Positions 3,679-62,429 of a stretch of 64,000 nt of DNA are shown piece after piece. The DNA is from Nitrospirota bacterium. GTDB taxonomy: Bacteria > Nitrospirota > Thermodesulfovibrionia > UBA6902. The stretch lies in the NCBI GenBank assembly GCA_016213945.1, contig JACQZF010000048.1, positions 33,854 to 97,853 on the forward strand, written 5' to 3'. A program made the position numbers and the translations under genes. How positions within the stretch are numbered: the stretch's first letter is position 1; the number at the start of each line of letters is the position of its first letter. The notes under the pieces are model-generated. The model had not been told where the DNA came from. It was given only the letters and a program-made list of their open reading frames with translations, and did not search any database.

Positions 3679-3698
3679 ATTATCTATATTTCTTGGCT

Positions 3699-3755
3699 GT
3701 CATTCCGGCTTGTTCGGAATCCTTTTTAAGAAGATTCCCGACAAGCGGGAATGAC
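3699..3755. repeat. REP-like palindromic element copy 1 (GTCATTCCGGCTTGTTCGGAATCC...GATTCCCGACAAGCGGGAATGAC) between two glutamate synthase genes
   Basis: Two inverted ~24-nt hairpin units. The termini GTCATTCC...GGAATGAC are shared by all copies. Confidence 0.7.
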
Positions 3756-3803
3756 ATCATTCGGTAACTTCCGCGCTTTTGCTCTTCTGCGCTATTGAAC
3801 TTT

Positions 3804-5465
3804 TTAACATACATAATTAATCTGTAGTCTCTCTGCAATCGCATGGTCGTCTGTGCTGATGCCGTCTGACATGCCGATTGGCAGTTCCGTGCTTCGGCCC
3901 ATTGGGGCGAATATTTTCTTCAACTCTATATCCAATGATTTGTAAACTTCAACCACCCTCTCTGCAACCACATCAGGGTCAAGCCTCCTGTAGAGTTTTG
4001 GGTCCTGAGTCGTGATGCCTCTCGGGCATTTGCCAAGGTTGCATACGTTGCAGCGGTTCATCTCATCTCCATGACAGGCTGCTGCCGCCTGCATGATATA
4101 TTTCCCGATTGAAACAGCGGATGCGCCTAACATGAAGAGCGCTGCAGCATTCGCCGCAAGGTTGCCCTTCTTTCCGACACCTCCTGCCGCAATGAGAGGC
4201 AGTTCATTCTGTTTGCCGTATTTTACGAGGTCGAGATAGCATTCTCTAATATTGGATGCGATGGGATGCCCCATCGTGTCCATTGATACGGCGTATGCCG
4301 CGCCTGTCCCGCCGTCCTCACCGTCAATCGAAAGGGCAGCGGCATACTGATTTCTGACTAAATTATTCAGGACCGCCTTTGCAGTCCGCGTTCCTGAGAT
4401 CTTCGGATAGACAGGGACCCTGAAGCCCCACGCCATGGACATTGACTGGATCATCTTTGCGACAGACTCTTCAATCGAATATTTCGTCTGATGCGTCGGA
4501 GGCGAGGGGAGGTCTACACCCATCGGCACTCCCCGAATCTCTGAGATTAATTTCAAAACCTTGTGCGCCATCAGGAGCCCGCCGTCTCCGGGCTTTGCGC
4601 CCTGCCCGTATTTGATCTCAATCGCGCAGGGGTCTTCGATCATATGAGGGAGCGTCCTGATAATCTCGTCCCAGCCGAAATAACCTGAGGCGATCTGGGG
4701 TATAAAATATTTAATGAACCTCGACTTGAGAAGCCTGTGCGGCATCCCGCCTTCACCTGAGCACATGACAACCGGCATCCCTTCAACTTCATTGAGATAC
4801 GTAATGCCCATTGCAAGCCCTTCCCACATGGTGGGAGAAAGCGCGCCGATGGACATGCTGCCTATCATCACAGGGTATATTTCCCGGACAGGCGGTATGA
4901 ATTTACCGGTAGTTTTATCAGCATCGAGCTTGCCGTCAATCATCTTCAGCGGCAGTTCTTCCGCAGGCAGTATCCTGCCTAAGTACGTACGTATCCTGAA
5001 TTCGTGCCTGCCTGCGTCAAGCGCAGGGTCGGTGAGCATGGAGATTCTTGTAAATCTCAATCTGTCCAAAGTGGAAGGCGACGGATCGTTTCTCCTGCCG
5101 CCCCTTCTGTAGGGATGACCGCCTTTGTTTTTATGGAAGTTGAATTTATGCTGCGGATTATACTCCGGCTCAATTGCCTCGTTGGGACAAACGAGTGTGC
5201 AGGTCCCGCAGCCAATGCAATAGCGTTCTATATTGGTTGTCTGTTTGACCATAGTCGTGACAACCCGCGCTGCTTTGGGTTCAGGTGTCATTCCTTCTGA
5301 CTGTAAAACCCGTTTTACAACAACAACCGGTTCTATTGAAAGCATCGGGCAGACGGCTGTGCACCTGCCGCAGCGTTTGCACCTGTCATCACGCCATCTA
5401 ACAACGTATGGTAGATCTTTTACTGAAAGCTCATGATTATGGTCTAAGCGTGAAGCTGGTTCCAT
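3804..5465 (-). CDS. Glutamate synthase FMN-binding domain protein (archaeal-type domain 2) with an N-terminal 2x[4Fe-4S] ferredoxin
   Basis: It carries CKRCGRCTAVCP / CIGCGTCTLVCP and the Glu_synthase core (GVDLPSPPTHQ..., IDGEDGGTGAA, LIAAGGVGKKGN). Confidence 0.8.
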   Translation of the reverse strand: MEPASRLDHNHELSVKDLPYVVRWRDDRCKRCGRCTAVCPMLSIEPVVVVKRVLQSEGMTPEPKAARVVTTMVKQTTNIERYCIGCGTCTLVCPNEAIEPEYNPQHKFNFHKNKGGHPYRRGGRRNDPSPSTLDRLRFTRISMLTDPALDAGRHEFRIRTYLGRILPAEELPLKMIDGKLDADKTTGKFIPPVREIYPVMIGSMSIGALSPTMWEGLAMGITYLNEVEGMPVVMCSGEGGMPHRLLKSRFIKYFIPQIASGYFGWDEIIRTLPHMIEDPCAIEIKYGQGAKPGDGGLLMAHKVLKLISEIRGVPMGVDLPSPPTHQTKYSIEESVAKMIQSMSMAWGFRVPVYPKISGTRTAKAVLNNLVRNQYAAALSIDGEDGGTGAAYAVSMDTMGHPIASNIRECYLDLVKYGKQNELPLIAAGGVGKKGNLAANAAALFMLGASAVSIGKYIMQAAAACHGDEMNRCNVCNLGKCPRGITTQDPKLYRRLDPDVVAERVVEVYKSLDIELKKIFAPMGRSTELPIGMSDGISTDDHAIAERLQINYVC

Positions 5466-8560: not shown

Positions 8561-9995
8561 CACATTCTTTATTTAATGTGGTTTCAGGGACAGGCATATA
8601 ATTTTTCAATGCCGTGACGTGTTGCAGCGCGTGTAAATTTTCTACTTCCACGGGTTGGGTTAAATCCCGTGACCTTGCCCTTGCGAGACCCCAAACAACT
8701 ACGGAACAGCCTGTTGCTATAAAACATAAAATTCCCGCAAAGACAAATGCCATGACGTACTGCTGCGTTGCGTCATAGAGCACGCCTCCCACAACAGGGC
8801 CGAGGATGCCTGCAACGCCATACGCTGTAAATATCCATCCGTAGTTTACTCCGAGATTCTTAGTCCCGAAATAGTCGGCGGTTGCCGACGGGAAAAGTGC
8901 AAAGATCCCGCCGTAATTCAACCCTACCCATGCAGAGGCAAGGAATATAGATACGTGTGATTCAACGCTTACAAGTAGCATAAAAGCCATGCCTTGTGCA
9001 AGAAACATAATCATCATGGCACGCGGTCTGTCAATAAGATCACTGACCTTGCCCCAGAAGACGCGTCCGAGTGCATTGAAGATAGCAAGGATGCCGATGG
9101 GTTCGACAAAACGTCCAAAGGTGCCCATCCATTCAGGGGCAAAAGTTTTCCCCTTGAGAATTGCGCCCATCAAAGGATTCCACTGGCCGATAGCCATTAA
9201 TCCTGATGTGGCTCCAAAAATAAATGTGAGCCACAGCATACAGGAAAGCGGTGTATTGAGCATCTCTCTCCACTCTACATCATGCGGAGTCTGATTTTTG
9301 ACCTTACCTGAATTCCAGCCCACGGGCTGCCACCCTGCCGGGGGATTACACAAAAGTGAAGCGCCGAGAATAACGAAAACAGCGCTGGTAAAGCCGTGAA
9401 GGACAAAAAATGTCTGCCAGCCGATCCCAAATCCGTTCCCTTTGGAAATACCGAGGGCTATCATCAGGATTTGTGACAAACCCATGGCCTCTCCTCCTGT
9501 CCCAGGCTGTTGTAAAAGTATGGATGCGGGTCCAGCAAAAAAGAGCGCCCCTGCTCCGAAACCGGCAACTGACAAACCTGTGATCAAGCCCTTTTTATCC
9601 GGGAACCACTTTACTGCGGCGGCAATAGGACAGACATATGCAAATCCTATCCCTGCGCCACCGATAATTCCATATGTGAGATACAGCGTCCACGGATGGC
9701 TTTTGTCAACCAGCAATGCCCCGAGCAGAAAAGAAATGCCAAGAAGGATGCCGCCAAATGATGCTACCTTGCGTGGCCCGATACGGTCCTGCAAACGGCC
9801 TGCCGGGATCATGATAGCGGCAAAGGTGAGCAAAGAAAACGAGAACGCCCACTGAGTTGTTGTGCGGCTCCATCCGAATTCCGCTTCAAGAGGCTTTACA
9901 AAAACGCTGAACGCGTAAACAGTTCCCAAAACTACCTGGACAATCAATGCCCCGGCTAAAACAGTCCAGCGGTTTTTATTTTTTTCTTCATTCAT
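8556..9995 (-). CDS. MFS transporter, oxalate/formate antiporter (OFA) family-like
   Basis: 479 aa with 12 predicted TM segments. The N-terminus (WTVLAGALIVQVVLGTVYAFSVF) is OFA-like. Confidence 0.65.
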   Translation of the reverse strand: MNEEKNKNRWTVLAGALIVQVVLGTVYAFSVFVKPLEAEFGWSRTTTQWAFSFSLLTFAAIMIPAGRLQDRIGPRKVASFGGILLGISFLLGALLVDKSHPWTLYLTYGIIGGAGIGFAYVCPIAAAVKWFPDKKGLITGLSVAGFGAGALFFAGPASILLQQPGTGGEAMGLSQILMIALGISKGNGFGIGWQTFFVLHGFTSAVFVILGASLLCNPPAGWQPVGWNSGKVKNQTPHDVEWREMLNTPLSCMLWLTFIFGATSGLMAIGQWNPLMGAILKGKTFAPEWMGTFGRFVEPIGILAIFNALGRVFWGKVSDLIDRPRAMMIMFLAQGMAFMLLVSVESHVSIFLASAWVGLNYGGIFALFPSATADYFGTKNLGVNYGWIFTAYGVAGILGPVVGGVLYDATQQYVMAFVFAGILCFIATGCSVVVWGLARARSRDLTQPVEVENLHALQHVTALKNYMPVPETTLNKECV

Positions 9996-20371: not shown

Positions 20372-20418
20372 ATCGTTTATAACCAGTTACCAAAAACATA
20401 AGTATGATAACTTGATTT

Positions 20419-20476
20419 GTCACTCCGGCTTGTCCAGAGTCTTTCTTAAAAAGGATTCCCGACAAGCGGGAATGAC
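20419..20476. repeat. REP-like palindromic element copy 5 (between the antiporter and kinase genes)
   Basis: GTCACTCCGGCTTGTCCAGAGTC...GGATTCCCGACAAGCGGGAATGAC. Confidence 0.7.
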
Positions 20477-39698: not shown

Positions 39699-40478
39699 AT
39701 GATTTTAAGAAAATTCAGAATGATATTATTCTTCGGGCTGTCCATTCTCCTGTATTCCATACAGCCTGCTGGATCAGAAGCCGCTCCTGTTTTCACCTAT
39801 AAAATCGTCAACACTTATCCTCATGACCAGCAGGCCTTCACGCAGGGGCTGGTTTTTAAAGAAGGTGTTTTGTATGAAGGGACAGGGCTGAACGGACAGT
39901 CTTCGTTGCGGAAGGTAAAACTTGAAAACGGGGAGGTCCTTAAAATTCATAAACTGCCGCCGGAGTTTTTCGGTGAGGGGATTACCGTCTGCGGGGACAA
40001 GATCATCCAACTTACATGGAAGTCCCACGCCGGATTTGTTTACGATAAGGACAGCTTTAAGCTGTTCAAGCAATTCAGCTATCCCACAGAAGGATGGGGC
40101 CTTACATATGACGGCAGGCAGTTGATCATGAGTGACGGGACAGAGGGCCTGTATTTTCTTGACCCGGAAACCTTTAAAGAACTCCGCCGGATCAAAGCGC
40201 ATGACAGTAAAGGCCCTGTGATCAAGCTCAATGAACTGGAATATATTAACGGCGAGATATTCGCAAATATATGGCCGACGGACCTGATTGTAAAGATCGA
40301 TCCGCGGACAGGCCGTGTAACAGGATGGATAAACCTGGAAGGGCTTTCTCCTGTCAATGACGGACAGAAGAAAAAGGTACTTAACGGCATTGCCTATGAC
40401 GCAAAGAGCGACAGGTTGTTTGTTACGGGTAAATTGTGGCCTGCTCTTTATGAGATTAAACTGGTACCTTTAGAGTAA
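39699..40478 (+). CDS. Glutaminyl-peptide cyclotransferase (bacterial/plant beta-propeller type), secreted
   Basis: Signal peptide and a typical QC sequence (…QQAFTQGLVF…YEGTG…). Confidence 0.6.
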   Translation: MILRKFRMILFFGLSILLYSIQPAGSEAAPVFTYKIVNTYPHDQQAFTQGLVFKEGVLYEGTGLNGQSSLRKVKLENGEVLKIHKLPPEFFGEGITVCGDKIIQLTWKSHAGFVYDKDSFKLFKQFSYPTEGWGLTYDGRQLIMSDGTEGLYFLDPETFKELRRIKAHDSKGPVIKLNELEYINGEIFANIWPTDLIVKIDPRTGRVTGWINLEGLSPVNDGQKKKVLNGIAYDAKSDRLFVTGKLWPALYEIKLVPLE

Positions 40479-40500
40479 TTAGTGTCTGCCCATAAGTAAC

Positions 40501-40579
40501 GTCATTCCCGCAGTCCTTTGAGCGGGAATCCAGTTTTTCAACAAGTTCTGGATACCCGATTACAGACTTCGGGCATGAC
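40501..40579. repeat. REP-like palindromic element copy 6 (after the cyclotransferase gene)
   Basis: GTCATTCCCGCAGTCCTTTGAGCGGGAATCC...GGATACCCGATTACAGACTTCGGGCATGAC. Confidence 0.65.
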
Positions 40580-40645
40580 GAAATTGAAAACTTGCAATTT
40601 ATGGGCAAACGCCAATTAGAAAGTAGCACGAAGTTATTTTGAAAG

Positions 40646-55152: not shown

Positions 55153-55446
55153 GGGATTATTTTACCTGAAACATACATTTGAAAAAATGCAGGGAACCTG
55201 AAGGCCATGCAAATGGGAAGAGAAACAAAAAAGGTACTGTTGGGAAAACTATACAGTTGTTATGAAAACCATACAACTCCTGATCTCCTCCCAAATAATT
55301 AAATCATGTTGTTTGAATAAGATATTCTTAATATTAAAGAGGTTATCACGGCTTTATACTTTGAGGCATTACTTTTGCATCTCAATACGATCCAGTGCTT
55401 TACTGAATAATGGTTTATTAAATTTTCTTCATTAAAGAAAGGATCC

Positions 55447-56766
55447 ATGTGCCGAATCATTGGCCTGTCACTCTTATCCAATAGGCTACGTCTTATAGTT
55501 CTTTTTATCGTCATCTTATCTCTCCATGGATGTGCTACAACGAAAAGCATTCATGAGGGATACCAACCCACTTCAGGACATCTGGAAGATAATATCGAAC
55601 AAAATGAGTTTTCAGTTGCAAAAGGAGATGGTGTCGTTGGCCGGTTGGCATTCATCAGTCTTGAAAAGGGGGATACGCTGCCGGATATTGCAAGGCACTT
55701 CAGCCTGGGAATCAATGGAGTCAGTGCAGCTAATCCAGGGGTAGATATATGGGTGCCTGAGGCCGGAGAACGTATCATGTTGCCTCTGAGTTTTATCCTG
55801 CCGGACGCTCATAGAAGCGGCATTGTGATCAACTTGGCCGCCATGAGGCTTTTTCAATTTAAAGAAGATAGTGAGTCCCTGGCGGTGTTGACCTACCCGG
55901 TCGGGGTCGGTACCGAAGAGCGACCCTCGCCCACAGGTCAAATGTATGTGGAGCGCAAGGTAATCCGGCCGACCTGGCATGTGCCTGCCTCAATTGCCAA
56001 GGATCATCTAAAAAAAGGAGATCCTCTGCCCGCTAAAGTTCTGCCGGGACCCCAAAATCCCTTGGGAGAATACGCGCTATATTTAAGTAAGTCGAGTTAT
56101 TTGATCCATGGCACTAATAAACCGGCCAGCATTGGTCTTAGGGCAACCAATGGCTGCATAAGACTCTATCCAGAAGACGTGAAGAATCTCTATGAGAACA
56201 CTCCGGTTAAAACACCTGTAAGCATCGTTAACCAGCCATATCTCGTAGGTCAGCGTGATGGAGTAGTTTACATGGAAGTTCATGCGCCCCCGGAAGATTT
56301 GGACGCTGTTGAGTTTGATAAGATATATGCAAAATTGAGAAATATTGAAAAGGAATCGGGGCGCACGCTTGACTGGAGTAAAGTTAAGAAAGTATTGGCC
56401 GAGGCCCGGGGGATTCCTGTACCCATATTCGAGATCAGGCAAGGAAGTGGAAAAGGGGTTGCGGAAACCATAGAACTCAGGCACCCGGGTGGATTATCTG
56501 GCAGACCAGAAATACCAGAACTGAAAACAGAGGCGTGGTCTGTTTTGGCTGCTGACGTGCATGACGAGATTGATGCTTTGAGGCTTGCCGCCATTATCAA
56601 CCACCAGGGCCCACAAATTCCGGCAAGGGTGTTATCAAAGAACGTTAGCTACCGTGTTATCGCTGGCCCTTTCAATGATATCAGAGAGGCCAAAGATGCA
56701 ATCAAACGCTTGAAAATTGATTTGGAAATAGATGGTATATTGATTGAACCTGTCAATAAGAGATAG
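55447..56766 (+). CDS. L,D-transpeptidase with an N-terminal LysM-like and a C-terminal SPOR-like domain
   Basis: Lipoprotein signal, GDTLPDIARHF, the YkuD catalytic region (…HGTNKPASIG...TNGCIRL), and a C-terminal YRVIAGPFNDIREA... Confidence 0.75.
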   Translation: MCRIIGLSLLSNRLRLIVLFIVILSLHGCATTKSIHEGYQPTSGHLEDNIEQNEFSVAKGDGVVGRLAFISLEKGDTLPDIARHFSLGINGVSAANPGVDIWVPEAGERIMLPLSFILPDAHRSGIVINLAAMRLFQFKEDSESLAVLTYPVGVGTEERPSPTGQMYVERKVIRPTWHVPASIAKDHLKKGDPLPAKVLPGPQNPLGEYALYLSKSSYLIHGTNKPASIGLRATNGCIRLYPEDVKNLYENTPVKTPVSIVNQPYLVGQRDGVVYMEVHAPPEDLDAVEFDKIYAKLRNIEKESGRTLDWSKVKKVLAEARGIPVPIFEIRQGSGKGVAETIELRHPGGLSGRPEIPELKTEAWSVLAADVHDEIDALRLAAIINHQGPQIPARVLSKNVSYRVIAGPFNDIREAKDAIKRLKIDLEIDGILIEPVNKR

Positions 56767-56790
56767 AAAAAGAAAGGAGGTGATTAGACA

Positions 56791-57114
56791 ATGAAGAAGA
56801 TTCTTTTGGTGATCTCAATGATGCTTGTTCTTGCTATTACTATGCTGGGTTGTGCAACAAAAGGTGACCTTGAGAGAGTTCAGTCGCAGCAAATGCTGAC
56901 TGGTGCGAAAGCTGATCAGGCAGCGCAGGATGCGCAGGATGCCAAGGCGGCAGCTGATGCGGCCACGTTAAAGGCAGAGGCTGCCGCAACCCGCGCCGAA
57001 AATGCCCTGAAGATAGCAGAGGAAAGGGAGAAGATAGCAGAGGAAAAGGCGAAGATGGCAGATGAAAAAGCGAAGATGGCTGACGACATGTTCCAGAAAT
57101 CAATGAAGAAGTAA
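56791..57114 (+). CDS. Lpp (Braun)-like alanine-rich coiled-coil lipoprotein ending in Lys
   Basis: Lipobox LGC, Ala/Lys/Glu-rich heptads, and the terminal sequence ...SMKK. Confidence 0.6.
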   Translation: MKKILLVISMMLVLAITMLGCATKGDLERVQSQQMLTGAKADQAAQDAQDAKAAADAATLKAEAAATRAENALKIAEEREKIAEEKAKMADEKAKMADDMFQKSMKK

Positions 57115-57149
57115 GTCAATTTTATGGGAGTGTAGGGGCAATTCATGAA

Positions 57150-58178
57150 TTGCCCCTACACTCTTATGTATTAACGAACACGAAGGGATATATGGGTAAA
57201 AAGCAAAGTAGGACAGGTGAGCATTTTTACTTTTTCTTTGTCTGCATCATAATAACACCAATTTTAATATGCGGATGCAGTCACCTTAATGAGGGATTTC
57301 GGGCCAAGTCAACCTTCAAGGAAGCGAATGATCTTTTCAGCCAGGGAAGCTATAAGGCCTCTCTGAGCAAATATGAGCAGCTTATTGAAAAATATCCTGC
57401 GGCGGGAGACAGGGTTCTTTTCGAGATGGGTATTATTTATGCGTATCCTATAAATGAGCAAAAAGATTATCAGAAATCTCTGGAATGTTTTCAGAAACTA
57501 ATAAAGGATTACCCGGAGAGTGGGTACAGGAAGGACAGTGAGATGATGATATTCCAGATCAATAATGTCATCTTCAAAGATAAGACGATTGGTACGCAGC
57601 AAACACAGATTGAGACTCTCCAGCAAGAAGTCAAAAGCAGAGGGCATGAGATTATTACACTGCAAGAAAAGATCGAAGCGCTTGAACAAGAGGTCAAGAG
57701 CAAAGAGAATGAGATTATTACACTGCAAAAAGAGGTTTTTGCACTCCAGAAGGGACCGGCAGATAAGATTCTGATAGAAAAGAAAGAGCGACGATTGACA
57801 TTGCTCTCAAAGGGCAAGGCGATCAAGACCTACAACATAGCCTTGGGGGGGAACCCGAATGGTCCAAAAGAAAGGCAAGGCGATAACAAAACCCCGGAGG
57901 GAATCTACGTTATCGATTCAAGAAACAGGGACAGCCCTTATCACCTGTCTCTTCATATTTCCTATCCAAACGAGAAGGACAAAAAGCGGGCAAAAGAACT
58001 TGGTGTTTCTCCGGGCGGAGACATCATGATCCACGGCATTAAGAATGGTTTCTCGTGGGTTGGTAATTTGCACACAGAGGTTGACTGGACGAAAGGGTGT
58101 ATTGCCGTTACAGACGAAGAAATAGAGGAAATTGACAAGTTAGCGCCAAATGGTACGATTGTTGAGATAAGGCCATAG
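57150..58178 (+). CDS. L,D-transpeptidase (YkuD domain) with an N-terminal TPR-like region and a coiled-coil repeat
   Basis: It ends ...HLSLHISYPN...GDIMIHG...WTKGCIAVT, with a QEVKS..EIITLQ repeat. Confidence 0.75.
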   Translation: MPLHSYVLTNTKGYMGKKQSRTGEHFYFFFVCIIITPILICGCSHLNEGFRAKSTFKEANDLFSQGSYKASLSKYEQLIEKYPAAGDRVLFEMGIIYAYPINEQKDYQKSLECFQKLIKDYPESGYRKDSEMMIFQINNVIFKDKTIGTQQTQIETLQQEVKSRGHEIITLQEKIEALEQEVKSKENEIITLQKEVFALQKGPADKILIEKKERRLTLLSKGKAIKTYNIALGGNPNGPKERQGDNKTPEGIYVIDSRNRDSPYHLSLHISYPNEKDKKRAKELGVSPGGDIMIHGIKNGFSWVGNLHTEVDWTKGCIAVTDEEIEEIDKLAPNGTIVEIRP

Positions 58179-58432
58179 AAGGCCGCATAACTTATCATGC
58201 TACCGATCATTCTACCGAATCTCAGGAGGAATCGCTCGGAGGGGGTCACAAAAAAGGTCACAGTGATGAAGAAAAAGGGGCTACGATTGCCGTAACCCCC
58301 TTAATATTGCTGGCGTCCCTTTATTGATGAATTCAGAACCTGGCTGATTCAGAATGCGGCATGAAAGACAGAATAGTGAACTATTTCTACGAAAGCAAAT
58401 TTATACGCTAATTTTTTTGCTTTCAGGCAAAT

Positions 58433-58888
58433 TTGTTGTATAATGTGAACATGCTGAAGGACAGGTATCTGGCATCTTATATCCTTGAGGATCTTAAGGA
58501 GAAAATGGTCTTTGTCGGCGGGCCTCGTCAGGTCGGAAAGACTACTCTCTGCCGTAAAATTGTTGCATCTCATTTTAGAAATCACGCGTATTTCAACTGG
58601 GACAACAGGGCGGACAGAAAAACCATTACCGCCTCTTCCTGGCCTGGGGATGCTGAACTCCTCATTTTTGATGAGATACATAAATACCGGCGGTGGAAAG
58701 GTCTCATCAAAGGCGAGTACGATAAGTTGAAAGAGATATATAAATTCCTCGTTACGGGCAGCGCACGGCTTGATCTTTATCGTAGGGGCAGCGATTCACT
58801 TCAAGTGGTAAAGCCGAACCATATCGATAAGCTTGAGAAAGGGATTAGAATCATTTCAGCAGGGAAATTCCTTTCCGGGCTAATCTGA
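58433..58888 (+). pseudogene. Truncated AAA_14/DUF4143-family ATPase (N-terminal ~125 aa only)
   Basis: Walker A GGPRQVGKTT and ...LVTGSARLDLYRRGSDSL are present, then similarity is lost. Full-length homologues are ~400 aa. Confidence 0.5.
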
Positions 58889-59247
58889 TACATTTTTAAT
58901 CCAACAAGTCGAGAGTGGGTGGCAAGGTTACAATTTATTAAACTTGAACTACACATAATTGACCAAACCAAATCTTCTGTCTGTTGACAACACCTCATTG
59001 CTATATGTTTTAATATCCTACCTTTTGGGGGGGCACATTGGCTGAGAAATATTTCAACAACAAAAGATTCTTGTGACTTAATAACAAGTTTTTTTAAAAG
59101 GCATTTTATCTGCCTGTATTAATAAAACATTTTCTAATGAGAGGATGCCGATATGAAGGGGACATGGCTGCATTTAAAAAAAGACACCAAACTTTTTTGA
59201 GTGGAAAAAAATCAAGTCGGCATCCTCTCTCCGGATCAGGTCCTGAC

Positions 59248-60081
59248 ATGTTTATAAGGATCATCTTAGCAGCGCTATTTCTTGTCGTACCCGCCTGGCC
59301 AGGCGTAAATGCCCTGGAAATCATGCTGCCTCAGGTTTATGAGCAAGGCATTGATGTCTCTAACTGGCTGATGAGCGAAAAACTTGATGGGGTGAGGGGC
59401 TATTGGGACGGCCGGCAACTGCTCTCGAAAAACGGGGCACCGTTTCATCCACCTTCGAGCTTTGTCAGGAATTTTCCGGATTTTGCGATCGAAGGCGAAA
59501 TATGGGGTGGTAGAAACACCTTTGAGAAAACCGTCGGAATAGTCAAAAAACAGGGACCCCATGACGGTTGGCTGGATTTGAAATTCGCCGTATTCGATGT
59601 CCCGGCAGCAGAAGGAGGCTTTGAAGAGCGGCTGAAGGTCGCAGAGGAATGGTTTATAAAGAACCCTTCCAGATATGCCTTTGTCATAGAGCACACCCCC
59701 ATTAAAAACAGCAGGCATTTACAGCAGGAATTAAAAAAGGTGGAAGCTCTGGAAGGTGAAGGGATAATCCTCAGAAGACCCGGTTCTCCATATACAAAGG
59801 GCCGAAGCGGAGACATCCTGAAAGTCAAAAGCTATTCGGACATGGAAGCTGTAGTAATAGGTCATATTCCCGGACAAGGCAGAAACGAAGGCAGGATGGG
59901 ATCTTTACTCGTGGAATTGCCGGGCAGCCAAACGATATTCAAAATAGGCACAGGCTTTTCCGACGAAATCAGGAAAAATCCTCCCACCGTAGGGTCGCTC
60001 ATCACCTTCAAGTATTACGGCTTCTACGAATCCGGAATTCCCAAATTCCCTTCTTTCATGAGGATCAGAGAAGAATTCTGA
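59248..60081 (+). CDS. LigE-type minimal ATP-dependent DNA ligase with an N-terminal signal peptide
   Basis: Motif I SEKLDGVRG (KxDG) and motifs III-V (AIEGEIW, EGIILRRPGSPYTKGRS). The signal peptide reads MFIRIILAALFLVVPAWPGVNA. Confidence 0.65.
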   Translation: MFIRIILAALFLVVPAWPGVNALEIMLPQVYEQGIDVSNWLMSEKLDGVRGYWDGRQLLSKNGAPFHPPSSFVRNFPDFAIEGEIWGGRNTFEKTVGIVKKQGPHDGWLDLKFAVFDVPAAEGGFEERLKVAEEWFIKNPSRYAFVIEHTPIKNSRHLQQELKKVEALEGEGIILRRPGSPYTKGRSGDILKVKSYSDMEAVVIGHIPGQGRNEGRMGSLLVELPGSQTIFKIGTGFSDEIRKNPPTVGSLITFKYYGFYESGIPKFPSFMRIREEF

Positions 60082-60727
60082 CACGGCTTGCGACTTGATG
60101 TTAAAGTGTTATCCCGAAGAAAAGAAGGTGTTTCTGACCGAGGAAGCTGTCCGAGCTTATAGCGCTTGGTGTACTTTATTTCCCCGCCAAAGAAGGTAGC
60201 TGACATCTTATGAGCTTCGTCACAGACTATAAGATCCCAGCGGCAATCCGGGGTCTTGAGCTTTTCCTGAACAGCTTCATTGCGGGACAATTTATCCAGC
60301 CGCGCTATAACGAGATTTGTCTCCAGGAACCAGTTACCAGTTCGCGCTGCCTCCAGCTTATCATTAGTGAGAATCTCAAAAGGCAGATGGAAGCGCCGAT
60401 AAAGTTCATCCTGCCACTGCTCAGCCAGGCTGCCGGGACAAACCTCAAGACACCTTTGGAGATCGCCGCGTACAATAAGTTCTTTGATTAGGAGCCCAGC
60501 CATGATCGTCTTGCCGGCGCCGCTTCATCATGGCGGTAAAGCAATTCGTTGGCAACACTGCCAGTCGGGGTCTTGTATGTAAGTTCAAGTGCTTCAGAGC
60601 CAAACCATTGAATATTAACCACGGTAACAAGGCTATTCGGTAGAATTCCTCTAACTGATGCATTAGGTTTTAAGTCTTCAAGCTTGCTCATAAGTATCCC
60701 CTTTGAATTGTTCCCTTCCTGGTGCAT
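60024..60727 (-). pseudogene. Fragments of an SNF2/DEAD-box family helicase gene (two ORFs in different frames, truncated by the ligase gene)
   Basis: DEAH-box LIVCDEAHKM in the 159-aa ORF. The 79-aa upstream ORF resembles SNF2-helicase N-termini. Confidence 0.45.
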
Positions 60728-61023
60728 TTTGCGCGTTTATGGCGTATTTGAAAAATGTCCCGATTGTCCCCATTATGTCCCCTTTCATTTTCTGCTCATA
60801 CCTGGTTCCCATCAACCTTTTCATGTCTTCTTTGTCCGGCTTTCTCTGTAAGGCATTTGGGGCATATTCAAGACAATTCCTGATCCGGTTGGCCCCTTAG
60901 CCCGATCTTACCATCATCCACATTACCCTTTTTATTACCCTCTGTTAGATGTATTACCTTTTGTCTTTCAGAGTGCCGCTCTATTTTACCTAATTCATTA
61001 CCTAATTAAATGGATATTACCTA

Positions 61024-61800
61024 TTACCTCTTTTCCCACTGGGCATTCTGTCCCCGACCGAGACATTTGACCTGTCCGGATGCTTTCATTGTCTTTAACA
61101 CCCGCCGGATCATATCCAAACTGACCCCGGGACACTCCCTCTGCATATCGCTAATGCGAAAAGGGGCAAAAGTCTTTTCAATTGCAGATTTGATCATCTC
61201 CGTCTTTGCGCCTTTCGGCGACCTCAATTGTCCTACCCGCTCCTCAAAATCACGATAGGCCGTTTTGAGCGTAAAGAGTACGTAATTGATAAAAGGCCAG
61301 GGATCATTTTTGCCTTTATGCCAGTCTTGAGAGCTTTGCTCCAGAGTTTCATAATAACGATCCTTGCTCTGTTCTATAATCCGCTCGATGCTGATATAGC
61401 GTCCGACTTCATAGCCCAAATGGTAACTTTGAAGCAATAGAAGAAGCCTTGAAGCCCTGCCGTTTCCGTCACGGAAGGGATGAATACACAGGAAATCAAG
61501 GTTGAATGCCGCAAGTGCTATCATGGGATGCACCCATTTTTCGCGGAGGCATCGGTTCCACATCTCAAGCAGCTTTGCCATATATTCAGAGGTCCTGTCA
61601 GCAGGCACTGTCTTAAAACGTATCCGGGATGTCCCATCAGGATATTTTTCAATTATATCGCTGTCCTGTTCCTTGTATTTTCCGGCATCCCATATCTGCC
61701 CCCGAGAAAGTTTATGCAGTTTGAGTATGGTATCCTCTGAAGCCGGGAGTTTGATGCCTTGCTCATGAATCAGTTTAAGAGCGTTGCGATACCCTCTCAC
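61024..61800 (-). CDS. Fic/Doc family protein
   Basis: HPFRDGNGRASR motif. Confidence 0.85.
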   Translation of the reverse strand: MRGYRNALKLIHEQGIKLPASEDTILKLHKLSRGQIWDAGKYKEQDSDIIEKYPDGTSRIRFKTVPADRTSEYMAKLLEMWNRCLREKWVHPMIALAAFNLDFLCIHPFRDGNGRASRLLLLLQSYHLGYEVGRYISIERIIEQSKDRYYETLEQSSQDWHKGKNDPWPFINYVLFTLKTAYRDFEERVGQLRSPKGAKTEMIKSAIEKTFAPFRISDMQRECPGVSLDMIRRVLKTMKASGQVKCLGRGQNAQWEKR

Positions 61801-62229
61801 TTCCTCCTCATCACGGTCGCGTAAATGTGATTTGCCGAGTATAAAATTGCTTTAATGTCATCATGCTTGTTTTCCCCCGTAAGGAGTCCGCTCTTCCCTC
61901 ACCTGTATCGACTCGTCAAATAACGGGCTTTCAATAATCAGACCTTCTCGAAATGGGAGATTGTTCATTTAACTAATAAAAAACCTGCCTCTCAGAGAAT
62001 GAAATATTATATATTAAACGAGCAAAAAGAGAGTGAAAAAGAAGGTGAGAATTTTATGCTCATTTACATGCAAACCAAAGTTATTATGATGAGGGAATAC
62101 GGATTTTAGAACTCGCTAACCATGCGTATGAATTATATAAAGTGAACAATCATCAGGAAAGGGCTAAATTACTGAAAACCGTACTTTCGAACTGCTCCCT
62201 GAAAGACGGAACTCCTTATCCCATTTATA

Positions 62230-62262
62230 AAAATCCCTTTGGCATGATAGCCAAAGGGATTC
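62230..62262 (-). terminator. Hairpin AATCCCTTTGG-N8-CCAAAGGGATT followed by a T/A-rich tract on the minus strand; terminator of the tRNA-Lys/tRNA-Glu unit
   Basis: Perfect 11-bp inverted repeat immediately 3' of tRNA-Glu. Confidence 0.5.
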
Positions 62263-62273
62263 AAAATGAGAGC

Positions 62274-62351
62274 TGGCGTCCCCAAAGGGATTCGAACCCT
62301 TGTTACCGCCGTGAAAGGGCGATGTCCTAGGCCGGGCTAGACGATGGGGAC
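62274..62351 (-). tRNA. tRNA-Glu (UUC)
   Basis: Cloverleaf: acceptor GUCCCCA/UGGGGAC, anticodon loop CUUUCAC, T-loop GGUUCGAAUCC, CCA encoded. It is very similar to the bacterial tRNA-Glu consensus. Confidence 0.85.
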
Positions 62352-62353
62352 AC

Positions 62354-62429
62354 TGGTGAGCCGCGTTGGATTCGAACCAACGACCCACGCCTTAAAAGGG
62401 CGTTGCTCTACCAACTGAGCTAGCGGCCC
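62354..62429 (-). tRNA. tRNA-Lys (UUU)
   Basis: Acceptor GGGCCGC/GCGGCUC, anticodon loop CUUUUAA, T-loop GGUUCGAAUCC, CCA encoded. Confidence 0.85.

Follow-up and report, generated by a model that had tools for sequence, protein, structure and literature searches.

Three open reading frames (ORFs) lie head to tail on the forward strand at positions 55447-58178 of the window, a 64,000-nucleotide stretch of the genome of a Nitrospirota bacterium. We propose that they form a self-contained operon for the reversible covalent tethering between outer membrane and peptidoglycan, with an enzyme that attaches, a lipoprotein that is its substrate, and a second enzyme that detaches. We consider this reading reasonably probable. 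We will refer to the upstream YkuD-domain gene as P1, to the Lpp-like lipoprotein gene as P2, and to the downstream YkuD-domain gene as P3. All three products have a lipobox cysteine (residue 29 in P1, 21 in P2, and 29 in P3; all features are listed in Table 1). The cassette is best read as an operonic variant of the known tethering by Lpp, L,D-transpeptidases (Ldts), and DpaA that is found outside the Gammaproteobacteria, and in which the putative anchoring enzyme bears a SPOR domain and the DpaA-like enzyme appears to be lipid-anchored and stalked.

An earlier note on this region, made from the sequence without database searches, had described a Braun-type lipoprotein gene between two L,D-transpeptidases and took the whole to be a dedicated tethering module. 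The lipoprotein gene is indeed flanked by two YkuD-domain genes (Pfam E = 4e-23 for P1 and 4e-17 for P3), and the idea of a tethering module fits the Lpp/OprI family membership of P2, the conservation of its C-terminal lysine, and the repeated linkage of the three genes. The part that we revise is the second enzyme: P1 has the motif of a transpeptidase, but P3 has that of a DpaA-like hydrolase and does not seem to be of the attaching type.

Conservation of the three-gene linkage

We scanned one genome per species, which gave 215 relatives, and analyzed the best 80 loci; to score the trio, P1, P2, and P3 of the window were searched against the ORFs of these loci. The complete trio occurs in 72 of the 80 loci; in the remaining 8, the contig breaks off on the side where one would look for the missing gene. 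The order is P1-P2-P3 in 65 loci, plus one locus with an extra copy of P2. Five loci have the order P3-P1-P2 (four of these have Syntrophaceae or Smithella labels or are nearly identical to a Smithella locus, and the fifth is from a metagenome-assembled genome, or MAG, of a "delta proteobacterium"). In one locus, P2 and P3 are followed by P1 on the opposite strand. P1 is beside the lpp-like gene in 77 of 80 loci. The earlier note had proposed comparing this arrangement across genomes, and the comparison bears it out: the trio is found together far beyond chance, in three gene orders and in unrelated contexts.

Because the flanking genes are rarely in common and there are three gene orders, the linkage is specific to these three genes and is not general synteny. 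Just 42 of 2,956 pairs of loci have any flanking gene within 6 kb in common. Independent look-ups of the trio's neighbors found, among others, genes for ribosomal proteins and a methyltransferase. In the closest relative, too (locus L008, identity of 92-94%), the flanks are unrelated. At the nucleotide level, the window and the other loci are similar (79-94%) to no more than about 30 bp past the stop codon of P3; the upstream limit is the start of P1 or 60-210 bp before it. In the window, the shared stretch covers 55238-58206.

There are hints of horizontal transfer of the cassette. If genomes are grouped by the submitters' taxonomy, then P1 proteins from Geobacter-labeled and Nitrospirota-labeled MAGs are on average 76% identical, as compared to 77-81% within the groups. 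The window is closest to Nitrospirota-labeled genomes (P1 is up to 91% identical). We also considered whether the module is hyperconserved relative to its flanks and rejected this, as shared flanks are equally or more conserved (the module was higher in 13 of 42 pairs).

The Lpp/OprI-type lipoprotein

On its family scores, the middle gene is a bona fide lipoprotein of the Lpp/OprI family, in agreement with the earlier note, which had pointed to its lipobox and to the abundance of alanine, lysine, and glutamate. P2 passes the cut-offs of both Alanine_zipper from Pfam (PF11839; 34.7 bits, gathering score 23.1) and "Lpp/OprI family alanine-zipper lipoprotein" from NCBIfam (NF040598; 62.3 bits, cut-off 43). 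It does not match the other models of Lpp: we found no match to LPP from Pfam (PF04728) at E ≤ 1, the score against the NCBIfam model for the enterobacterial Braun lipoprotein (NF011925) was 13.9 bits, which is below the cut-off of 108, and a phmmer comparison to the crystallized Lpp-56 of E. coli gave E = 1.2 only. NCBI's names for the homologs of P2 are already Lpp/OprI family. An exact-sequence look-up of the window's P2 returned no record.

The mature protein has 87 amino acids, of which 24 are alanine, 13 are lysine, and 9 are glutamate. One heptad position is alanine across 9 consecutive heptads, which gives an unbroken alanine stripe. The AlphaFold model of the monomer is a single helix from residue 2 to residue 106 (predicted local distance difference test, or pLDDT, of 85).

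The conservation of the C-terminal lysine had been set beforehand as a refutation test. This lysine is present in 80 of 80 loci from the species-representative genomes, where the tail is usually KSM[KR]K, and in 113 of the 120 best database homologs (of 548 with E ≤ 0.001). The exceptions that we inspected look truncated or frame-shifted. Lys107 is also invariant in our alignment of 28 sequences (A1), as is the G-C-A-T of the lipobox. Among the same 120 database homologs, 105 have a lipobox and nearly all have PF11839.

One Syntrophus-labeled locus (L062) has a second Lpp-like gene (3886-4194, minus strand) besides the canonical copy. It is divergent and lies just upstream of P1.

The upstream enzyme

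P1 is probably the enzyme that staples P2 to the cell wall. The transpeptidase signature SxGChR is intact in 73 of 73 orthologs, which fits the earlier naming of P1 as an L,D-transpeptidase. The spacing from the catalytic histidine to the catalytic cysteine is 16. Residues 60-330 align to the NCBIfam models PRK10190, LdtE, and PRK10260 with 161-174 bits, which is below their equivalog cut-offs (480-583), and the Ldt_C domain of Pfam gave E = 0.018 only. The best matches by sequence among solved structures are 9tyw (5e-62) and 4lzh (1e-45). Among the orthologs, 44 of 74 fit a simple lipobox pattern (for example, L[HLY]GCATT).

The two accessory domains that the earlier note had seen in P1 fared differently. 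The SPOR domain is clear, and precomputed Pfam annotations place SPOR on the P1 orthologs in L001-L003, L005, and L006. The LysM domain falls short of Pfam's threshold (E = 0.11; 12.9 bits, gathering score 20.9), but E. coli LdtE has a clear LysM (1.4e-8) at the homologous position. This part of P1, which aligns to the N-terminal region of E. coli-type Ldts, is described here as a degenerate LysM-like domain.

In four loci (L011, L023, L042, and L073), the P1 ORF is about 545-556 amino acids long and continues for about 300 nt beyond the part that resembles the P1 of the window, which points to a C-terminal extension after SPOR.

The downstream enzyme

The start codon originally listed for P3 (TTG at 57150) sits inside a perfect hairpin, and translation from the ATG at 57192 gives a protein of 328 amino acids, which is the length of most P3 homologs. 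We therefore moved the start to this ATG, which is almost certainly the true one. The resulting protein has a predicted lipid-anchoring site: in our alignment of P3 (A2), Cys29 is invariant and Gly28 is nearly so, and 59 of 70 orthologs have the lipobox pattern. Besides YkuD, Pfam identifies TPR_6, YfiO (TPR repeats like those of BamD and CpoB), and a coiled-coil region, so the TPR and coiled-coil regions described in the earlier note hold up. We found 4020 homologs, the top 120 of which are 76-89% identical to P3. Several have been named "murein L,D-transpeptidase YafK" by the Joint Genome Institute.

We class P3 as a YafK/DpaA-like protein. Its motif is SxGChA, without the active-site arginine: GCIA is found in 69 of 70 orthologs, and TKGCIA aligns to S140-I-G-C143-Y-A145 of DpaA. 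The only Ldt-family model from NCBIfam that matches P3 is LdtF_DpaA_YafK (NF040599, 4e-11), and the best match by sequence to a solved structure is 8IKR, which is DpaA from E. coli (E = 1.7e-7). If we compare a profile of 30 P3 homologs to E. coli DpaA (b0224) with hhalign, the probability is 97.4% (E = 1e-11), with 36% identity through the catalytic cysteine, versus a probability of 1.2% for E. coli LdtE. In our alignments, the equivalents of Lys83, Gln86, Tyr109, and Met133 of DpaA are all conserved in P3; Lys83 is essential in DpaA (PMC10653827). The motif [DN][IV]M[IV]-H around the catalytic histidine is found in 67 of 70 orthologs, and GPKERQGD in 59 of 70.

P3 more probably detaches the lipoprotein than attaches it. 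DpaA is an amidase that removes Lpp from the peptidoglycan (PMC8263019, PMC10653827), and E. coli DpaA has no transpeptidase activity (PMC8263019). As noted by Winkle et al., DpaA lacks the arginine that is conserved in other Ldts, and the majority of DpaA-like proteins carry alanine or asparagine at this position (PMC8263019). They tied the loss of this arginine to hydrolase rather than transpeptidase activity (PMC8263019; PMC10434034), and a study of P. aeruginosa summarized the rule as SxGChR for transpeptidases and SxGChA for the hydrolase (PMC10434034). Since P3 has SxGChA and, among the Ldt-family models of NCBIfam, matches only that of DpaA, we place it with the detaching type. So just one of the two enzymes fits the earlier description of both as L,D-transpeptidases.

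Proposed mechanism

P2 would be lipid-anchored at Cys21 and would probably form an alanine-zipper trimer, with a helix of about 80 residues, or roughly 12 nm, that would bring the C-terminal Lys107 to the peptidoglycan layer. P1 would use a tetrapeptide stem as the donor: D-alanine would be released as the acyl-enzyme forms, and the carbonyl of meso-diaminopimelate (mDAP) would be transferred to the epsilon-amino group of Lys107. The SPOR and LysM-like domains may hold P1 on the peptidoglycan, and SPOR could guide it to denuded glycan at the septum. P3 would hydrolyze the amide between mDAP and lysine and release the lipoprotein, so that the bound and free pools could be adjusted. The strong ribosome-binding site of P2 and the hairpin directly after it would probably lead to far more lipoprotein than enzyme.

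Several points weigh against this proposal. For P1, lipoprotein anchoring versus 3-3 cross-linking cannot be assigned from the sequence, as the lineages of Ldts with one or the other activity are not separable (PMC10434034); what argues for anchoring is synteny only. The Ldt gene that adjoins lpp in E. coli K-12 is ldtE, whose product does not anchor Lpp but forms 3-3 cross-links (PMC8263019). P3 differs from DpaA at functional positions: Lys130 is replaced by glycine and Tyr131 by aspartate. (In DpaA, the Y131A mutant keeps 4% of the activity; PMC10653827.) Arg108 of DpaA is proline in the window's P3, though the family consensus is arginine. There is a 14-residue insertion between the catalytic histidine and cysteine of P3, in a region modeled with pLDDT < 50; the spacing between these residues is 22 in 67 of 69 orthologs, as compared to 8 in DpaA and 16 in P1. 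Also, P3 scores 42.4 bits against the DpaA equivalog model of NCBIfam, whose cut-off is 365. Because of the changes at Lys130 and Tyr131, the insertion, and the low score, we do not call P3 an equivalog of DpaA. LD-carboxypeptidases lack the active-site arginine too (PMC8263019). Finally, we infer that the lipoprotein is bound to peptidoglycan in Nitrospirota and Desulfobacterota, and the papers on Geobacter assume covalent binding.

Alternative explanations

P3 could be an L,D-carboxypeptidase like Csd6, Pgp2, or Bd1075, which would trim the tetrapeptide to a tripeptide and deplete the donor substrate of P1. Tethering would still be regulated. The missing arginine would fit a carboxypeptidase too, but we judge this explanation to be unlikely. 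In Csd6, Trp158 lines the pocket for D-alanine, and DpaA has Met133 at this position, two residues before the catalytic histidine (PMC10653827). By our alignment to P3, Bd1075 also has tryptophan there, and P3 has methionine, as DpaA does. DpaA is the better match to P3 by E-value, and its family is the only Ldt model of NCBIfam that P3 matches. Carboxypeptidases of the Csd6/Pgp2/Bd1075 type carry a C-terminal NTF2-like domain, but neither Pfam nor the structural model revealed any domain after YkuD in P3, which ends there. And strict linkage to an Lpp-type gene would be unexpected for an enzyme that trims stem peptides in general.

Another explanation is that P2 is not covalently bound. P1 would make 3-3 cross-links (perhaps at the septum, via SPOR), P3 would remodel stem peptides, and P2 would be a non-covalent spacer or a surface protein whose gene merely travels with genes for envelope remodeling. 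The location of E. coli lpp next to the gene for a cross-linking enzyme, and the mixed lineages of anchoring and cross-linking Ldts, are in its favor. Still, we consider it quite improbable. The terminal lysine and the F-x-K-S-M-K/R-K tail are kept in all 80 genomes while the helix varies by whole heptads; the linkage of the three genes persists through three rearrangements and many changes of context; and the partner enzyme belongs to a type whose target is the bond between Lpp and peptidoglycan.

That both YkuD proteins join the lipoprotein (alone or with other proteins) to peptidoglycan, with P3 as a second and outer-membrane-anchored transpeptidase, is the explanation to which we give the least credence: both do have YkuD domains with the conserved histidine and cysteine, E. 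coli has three redundant anchoring Ldts (PMC8263019), and generic LD-transpeptidases top the fold searches, but P3 lacks the arginine of SxGChR in nearly all orthologs, resembles DpaA and not LdtE by hhalign, matches no transpeptidase model of NCBIfam, and is related to an enzyme that has no transpeptidase activity in E. coli.

Comparison to known systems

The reversible-tethering reading is modeled on Lpp, LdtA/LdtB/LdtC, and DpaA (also known as LdtF or YafK) of E. coli. Both systems have a small helical-zipper lipoprotein with a C-terminal lysine, an SxGChR enzyme of the ErfK/YbiS/YcfS/YnhG type, and an SxGChA enzyme of the YafK type, and in K-12 as in the window an Ldt gene adjoins that of the lipoprotein. 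In E. coli, the genes are dispersed (dpaA at 245 kb, lpp at 1757 kb), whereas here they form one cassette. Mature Lpp from E. coli has 58 amino acids, versus 87 for P2. DpaA is a compact single-domain protein, unlike P3, which has three parts (TPR, stalk, and YkuD), the 14-residue insertion, and no equivalent of Tyr131. We know of no lipobox, SPOR, TPR, or stalk on the E. coli enzymes. The Pfam domains of E. coli LdtE are LysM, YkuD, and Ldt_C only.

OprI, LdtPae2, and LdtPae3 of P. aeruginosa follow the same logic of three functions, and P2 belongs to the same families as OprI (PF11839 and NF040598). This system is in another phylum, and the cassette differs from it in having a longer helix and enzymes with accessory domains. 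We presume that oprI and ldtPae2 are neighbors in P. aeruginosa, but we could not confirm this from the paper, its supplement, or other literature. The anchoring of OprI by LdtPae2, via the C-terminal lysine, was shown by mass spectrometry (PMC10434034). Release by the YafK-like LdtPae3 was assigned tentatively, from sequence similarity and from the lack of bond-forming activity (PMC10434034).

P2 is probably in the same subfamily as Geobacter's "long Lpp." Lpp proteins of 99 residues or more were noted in this genus by Mandela et al. (2022; PMC8824477), a more recent paper treats Lpp of G. sulfurreducens as a Braun lipoprotein (Nat Commun 2026; PMC13442872), and Geobacter-labeled genomes are among our loci. 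These papers assume the covalent binding and do not mention L,D-transpeptidases, YkuD, or the neighboring genes (PMC8824477, PMC13442872).

The TPR repeats of P3 resemble those of lipoproteins such as BamD and LpoP and of CpoB (YbgF) of the Tol-Pal system. P3 differs in that it is putatively lipid-anchored and ends in a catalytic YkuD domain, and CpoB presumably has the reverse domain order. A link to Tol-Pal is unsupported.

We found nothing relevant in the literature about PF11839 in this context or about an anchoring enzyme with SPOR and YkuD domains (our coverage was incomplete), so the operon and the architectures of its enzymes appear to be undescribed. Two widely cited surveys, by Witwinowski et al. 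and Winkle et al., defined Lpp by PF04728 alone. According to the survey view, covalent tethering of the Lpp type is confined to a few orders of Gammaproteobacteria (bioRxiv 10.1101/2021.05.31.446380), and DpaA-like enzymes in Deltaproteobacteria and other groups have "a different purpose" as those bacteria "lack Lpp" (Winkle et al.; PMC8263019). This is contradicted for at least 72 species-level genomes labeled as Nitrospirota or Desulfobacterota, in which a DpaA-like gene is linked to an OprI-type lipoprotein and a transpeptidase-type Ldt.

If the proposed chemistry is correct, then Braun-type tethering is older or more mobile than was thought, and the cassette would be a compact unit in which attachment and release could be tested together. 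The lipoprotein lengths, which step by heptads and are possibly tracked by the stalk, would be a natural experiment on the width of the periplasm. The advance is incremental, as each component could be predicted from E. coli or Pseudomonas, the NCBI name is already correct, and the long Lpp of Geobacter has been published.

Expression signals

A stem-loop follows the lpp-like gene in nearly all genomes. A hairpin with a free energy (dG) of -15 kcal/mol or below is present after this gene in 78 of 80 loci, with a mean of -26.0 as compared to -11.8 for shuffled sequences. These hairpins have at least two unrelated stem sequences and are found even in clusters that end with lpp, which implies that the structure is conserved and not just the sequence. 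We propose that the hairpin is an attenuator or terminator, or else a stabilizer of the 3' end of the mRNA, and that it may keep the levels of the enzymes low. In the window, the hairpin is about 25 nt from the start of P3, so P3 is probably made by read-through. E. coli Lpp is in huge excess over its enzymes, which read-through of a hairpin would fit. A scan for consensus promoters and terminators gave counts at chance level and missed the hairpin.

Upstream of P1, about 60 nt are conserved in 24 loci, including those from Syntrophia, where this stretch sits between P3 and P1. It holds a promoter-like block of the extended -10 type. A strict pattern for this block fits 12 of 73 loci; it has 13 matches in the 826 kb of loci, all but one at the position before P1. 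We rejected a structured RNA leader upstream of P1, as RNAalifold gave no conserved fold (-0.14 kcal/mol, no covariation) and Rfam had no match.

We also rejected, as a property of the module, a sigma-54 promoter (GGCATTACTTTTGCA at 55365-55379) with tandem GAAAACYATACAA repeats (55244-55276). The motif is near the start of the module in only 6 of 71 loci, its count within the window is at chance level, and the block that is conserved more widely uses the same "TTGCA" as its -35-like element. The two copies of the direct repeat, GAAAAC(T/C)ATACA(G/A), are about 100 bp upstream of the sigma-54-like GG-N10-GC element. Repeat and element are nearly invariant in the window, L008, L011, L023, and L042, and no other locus has them. 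This could be a regulatory input specific to the lineage, or simply the result of shared ancestry.

Table 1. Positions in the window of the three genes, their domains and motifs, and nearby expression signals.
Feature	Position	Strand	Description
Promoter-like block, TTGCAT-N15-TGCTTTACT	55375-55404	+	Extended -10 type; the P1 start is 43 nt downstream; putative promoter
P1	55447-56766	+	439 aa; probable lipoprotein L,D-transpeptidase of the ErfK/YbiS/YcfS/YnhG type, C-terminal SPOR
P1 lipobox, L-H-G-C	55522-55533	+	Cys29; from the sequence; predicted lipid modification
P1 degenerate LysM-like N-terminal domain	55624-55791	+	Residues ~60-115; Pfam LysM E = 0.11
P1 YkuD catalytic domain	55819-56226	+	His221, Cys237; motif T-N-G-C-I-R at 56146-56163
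P1 SPOR domain	56530-56742	+	Residues 362-432; PF05036, 1.7e-9, 38.3 bits (gathering score 21)
P2 ribosome-binding site, AAGGAGG	56774-56780	+	Strong; 10 nt before the ATG of P2
P2	56791-57114	+	107 aa; Lpp/OprI-family alanine-zipper lipoprotein
P2 lipobox, M-L-G-C	56842-56853	+	Cys21; from the sequence
P2 C-terminus, FQKSMKK	57091-57111	+	From the sequence; full ending ...DMFQKSMKK
Stem-loop	57124-57167	+	10 nt after the P2 stop; perfect inverted-repeat core at 57130-57161; 20 bp stem, dG -32 kcal/mol; tail TCTTATGTATT
P3	57192-58178	+	328 aa from the ATG at 57192; predicted lipoprotein with TPR, coiled-coil stalk, and YafK/DpaA-like YkuD
P3 lipobox, I-C-G-C	57267-57278	+	Cys29; from the sequence
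P3 TPR domain	57294-57521	+	Residues ~35-110; TPR_6 and YfiO matches; TPR helices in the model
P3 single 74-residue helix	57528-57749	+	Residues 113-186; internal 21-aa repeats; AlphaFold pLDDT ~84-93; proposed stalk
P3 YkuD domain	57765-58172	+	His281 in GGDIMIHG; Cys303 in T-K-G-C-I-A (58089-58106)
P3 GPKERQGDNKTPEG	57861-57902	+	Holds the equivalents of DpaA Lys83 and Gln86
P3 DSPYH	57930-57944	+	Holds the equivalent of DpaA Tyr109
P3 17-residue stretch IKNGFSWVGNLHTEVDW	58038-58088	+	Precedes TKGCIA; from the sequence

Length variation of the lipoprotein and the stalk

The mature Lpp-like proteins vary in length by steps of seven residues (80, 87, 94, 101, and 122 amino acids), due to the copy number of a heptad of the EKAKIAD type. 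The length of the stalk of P3 also varies between loci by the copy number of its internal repeat. Across 60 loci, the Spearman correlation between the two lengths is 0.48 (0.44 without one outlier), with no correction for phylogeny. Among 29 independent sister pairs, 5 showed a change in both lengths, and the direction was the same each time. (The clearest is L025 versus L051: about 1% of the aligned P1 residues differ, but the Lpp lengths are 28 amino acids apart and the stalk lengths 25.) In another 9 pairs, the stalk was unchanged while Lpp had shifted by 7 or 14 residues. A sign-flip test on the sister pairs gave p = 0.03, or p = 0.065 without the L025 pair. So the co-variation of the two lengths is suggestive only.

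A more ambitious reading is that the trio is a portable kit for setting the distance between the outer membrane and the wall. P3 would be anchored in the outer membrane, with its stalk as a ruler matched to the helix of the lipoprotein, which would place the catalytic domain in exactly the plane at which lipoprotein and wall meet, and the two lengths would co-evolve by the gain and loss of repeats; the three genes, along with their leader and hairpin, would be transferred horizontally between Nitrospirota and Desulfobacterota; and attachment and release would be concentrated at the division septum by the SPOR domain of P1 and the CpoB-like TPR of P3. We find this doubtful as a whole.

Neighboring genes and repeats

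Upstream of the cassette, and divergent from it, is a housekeeping block with an HI0933-like flavoprotein, Maf, and Dus. Downstream are gene fragments and an ATP-dependent DNA ligase. These belong to an island-like stretch (58433-62429) that lies directly 3' of the cassette and ends at genes for tRNA-Glu and tRNA-Lys (62274-62429, minus strand). It contains an ORF for a truncated AAA_14 ATPase, the ligase, which is small, a Fic-family gene, and short ORFs with fragments of SNF2/ResIII helicases.

At 3698-3756, the window also has a palindrome with arms of 29 nt. The sequence at 20417-20476 is related to it but has no inverted repeat of its own. Another related copy is in the spacer between lpp and P3 in L008 (6584-6665), where the spacer is widened to about 490 bp. 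This looks like a dispersed repeat of the repetitive extragenic palindromic (REP) type that is common to the window's genome and L008. An element of 143 bp at 40476-40618 is bounded by imperfect inverted repeats of 20 nt (TAATTAGTGTCTGCCCATAA ... TTATGGGCAAACGCCAATTA) and resembles a miniature inverted-repeat transposable element. It matches L008 at 9672-9791 over 120 bp, with 92% identity.

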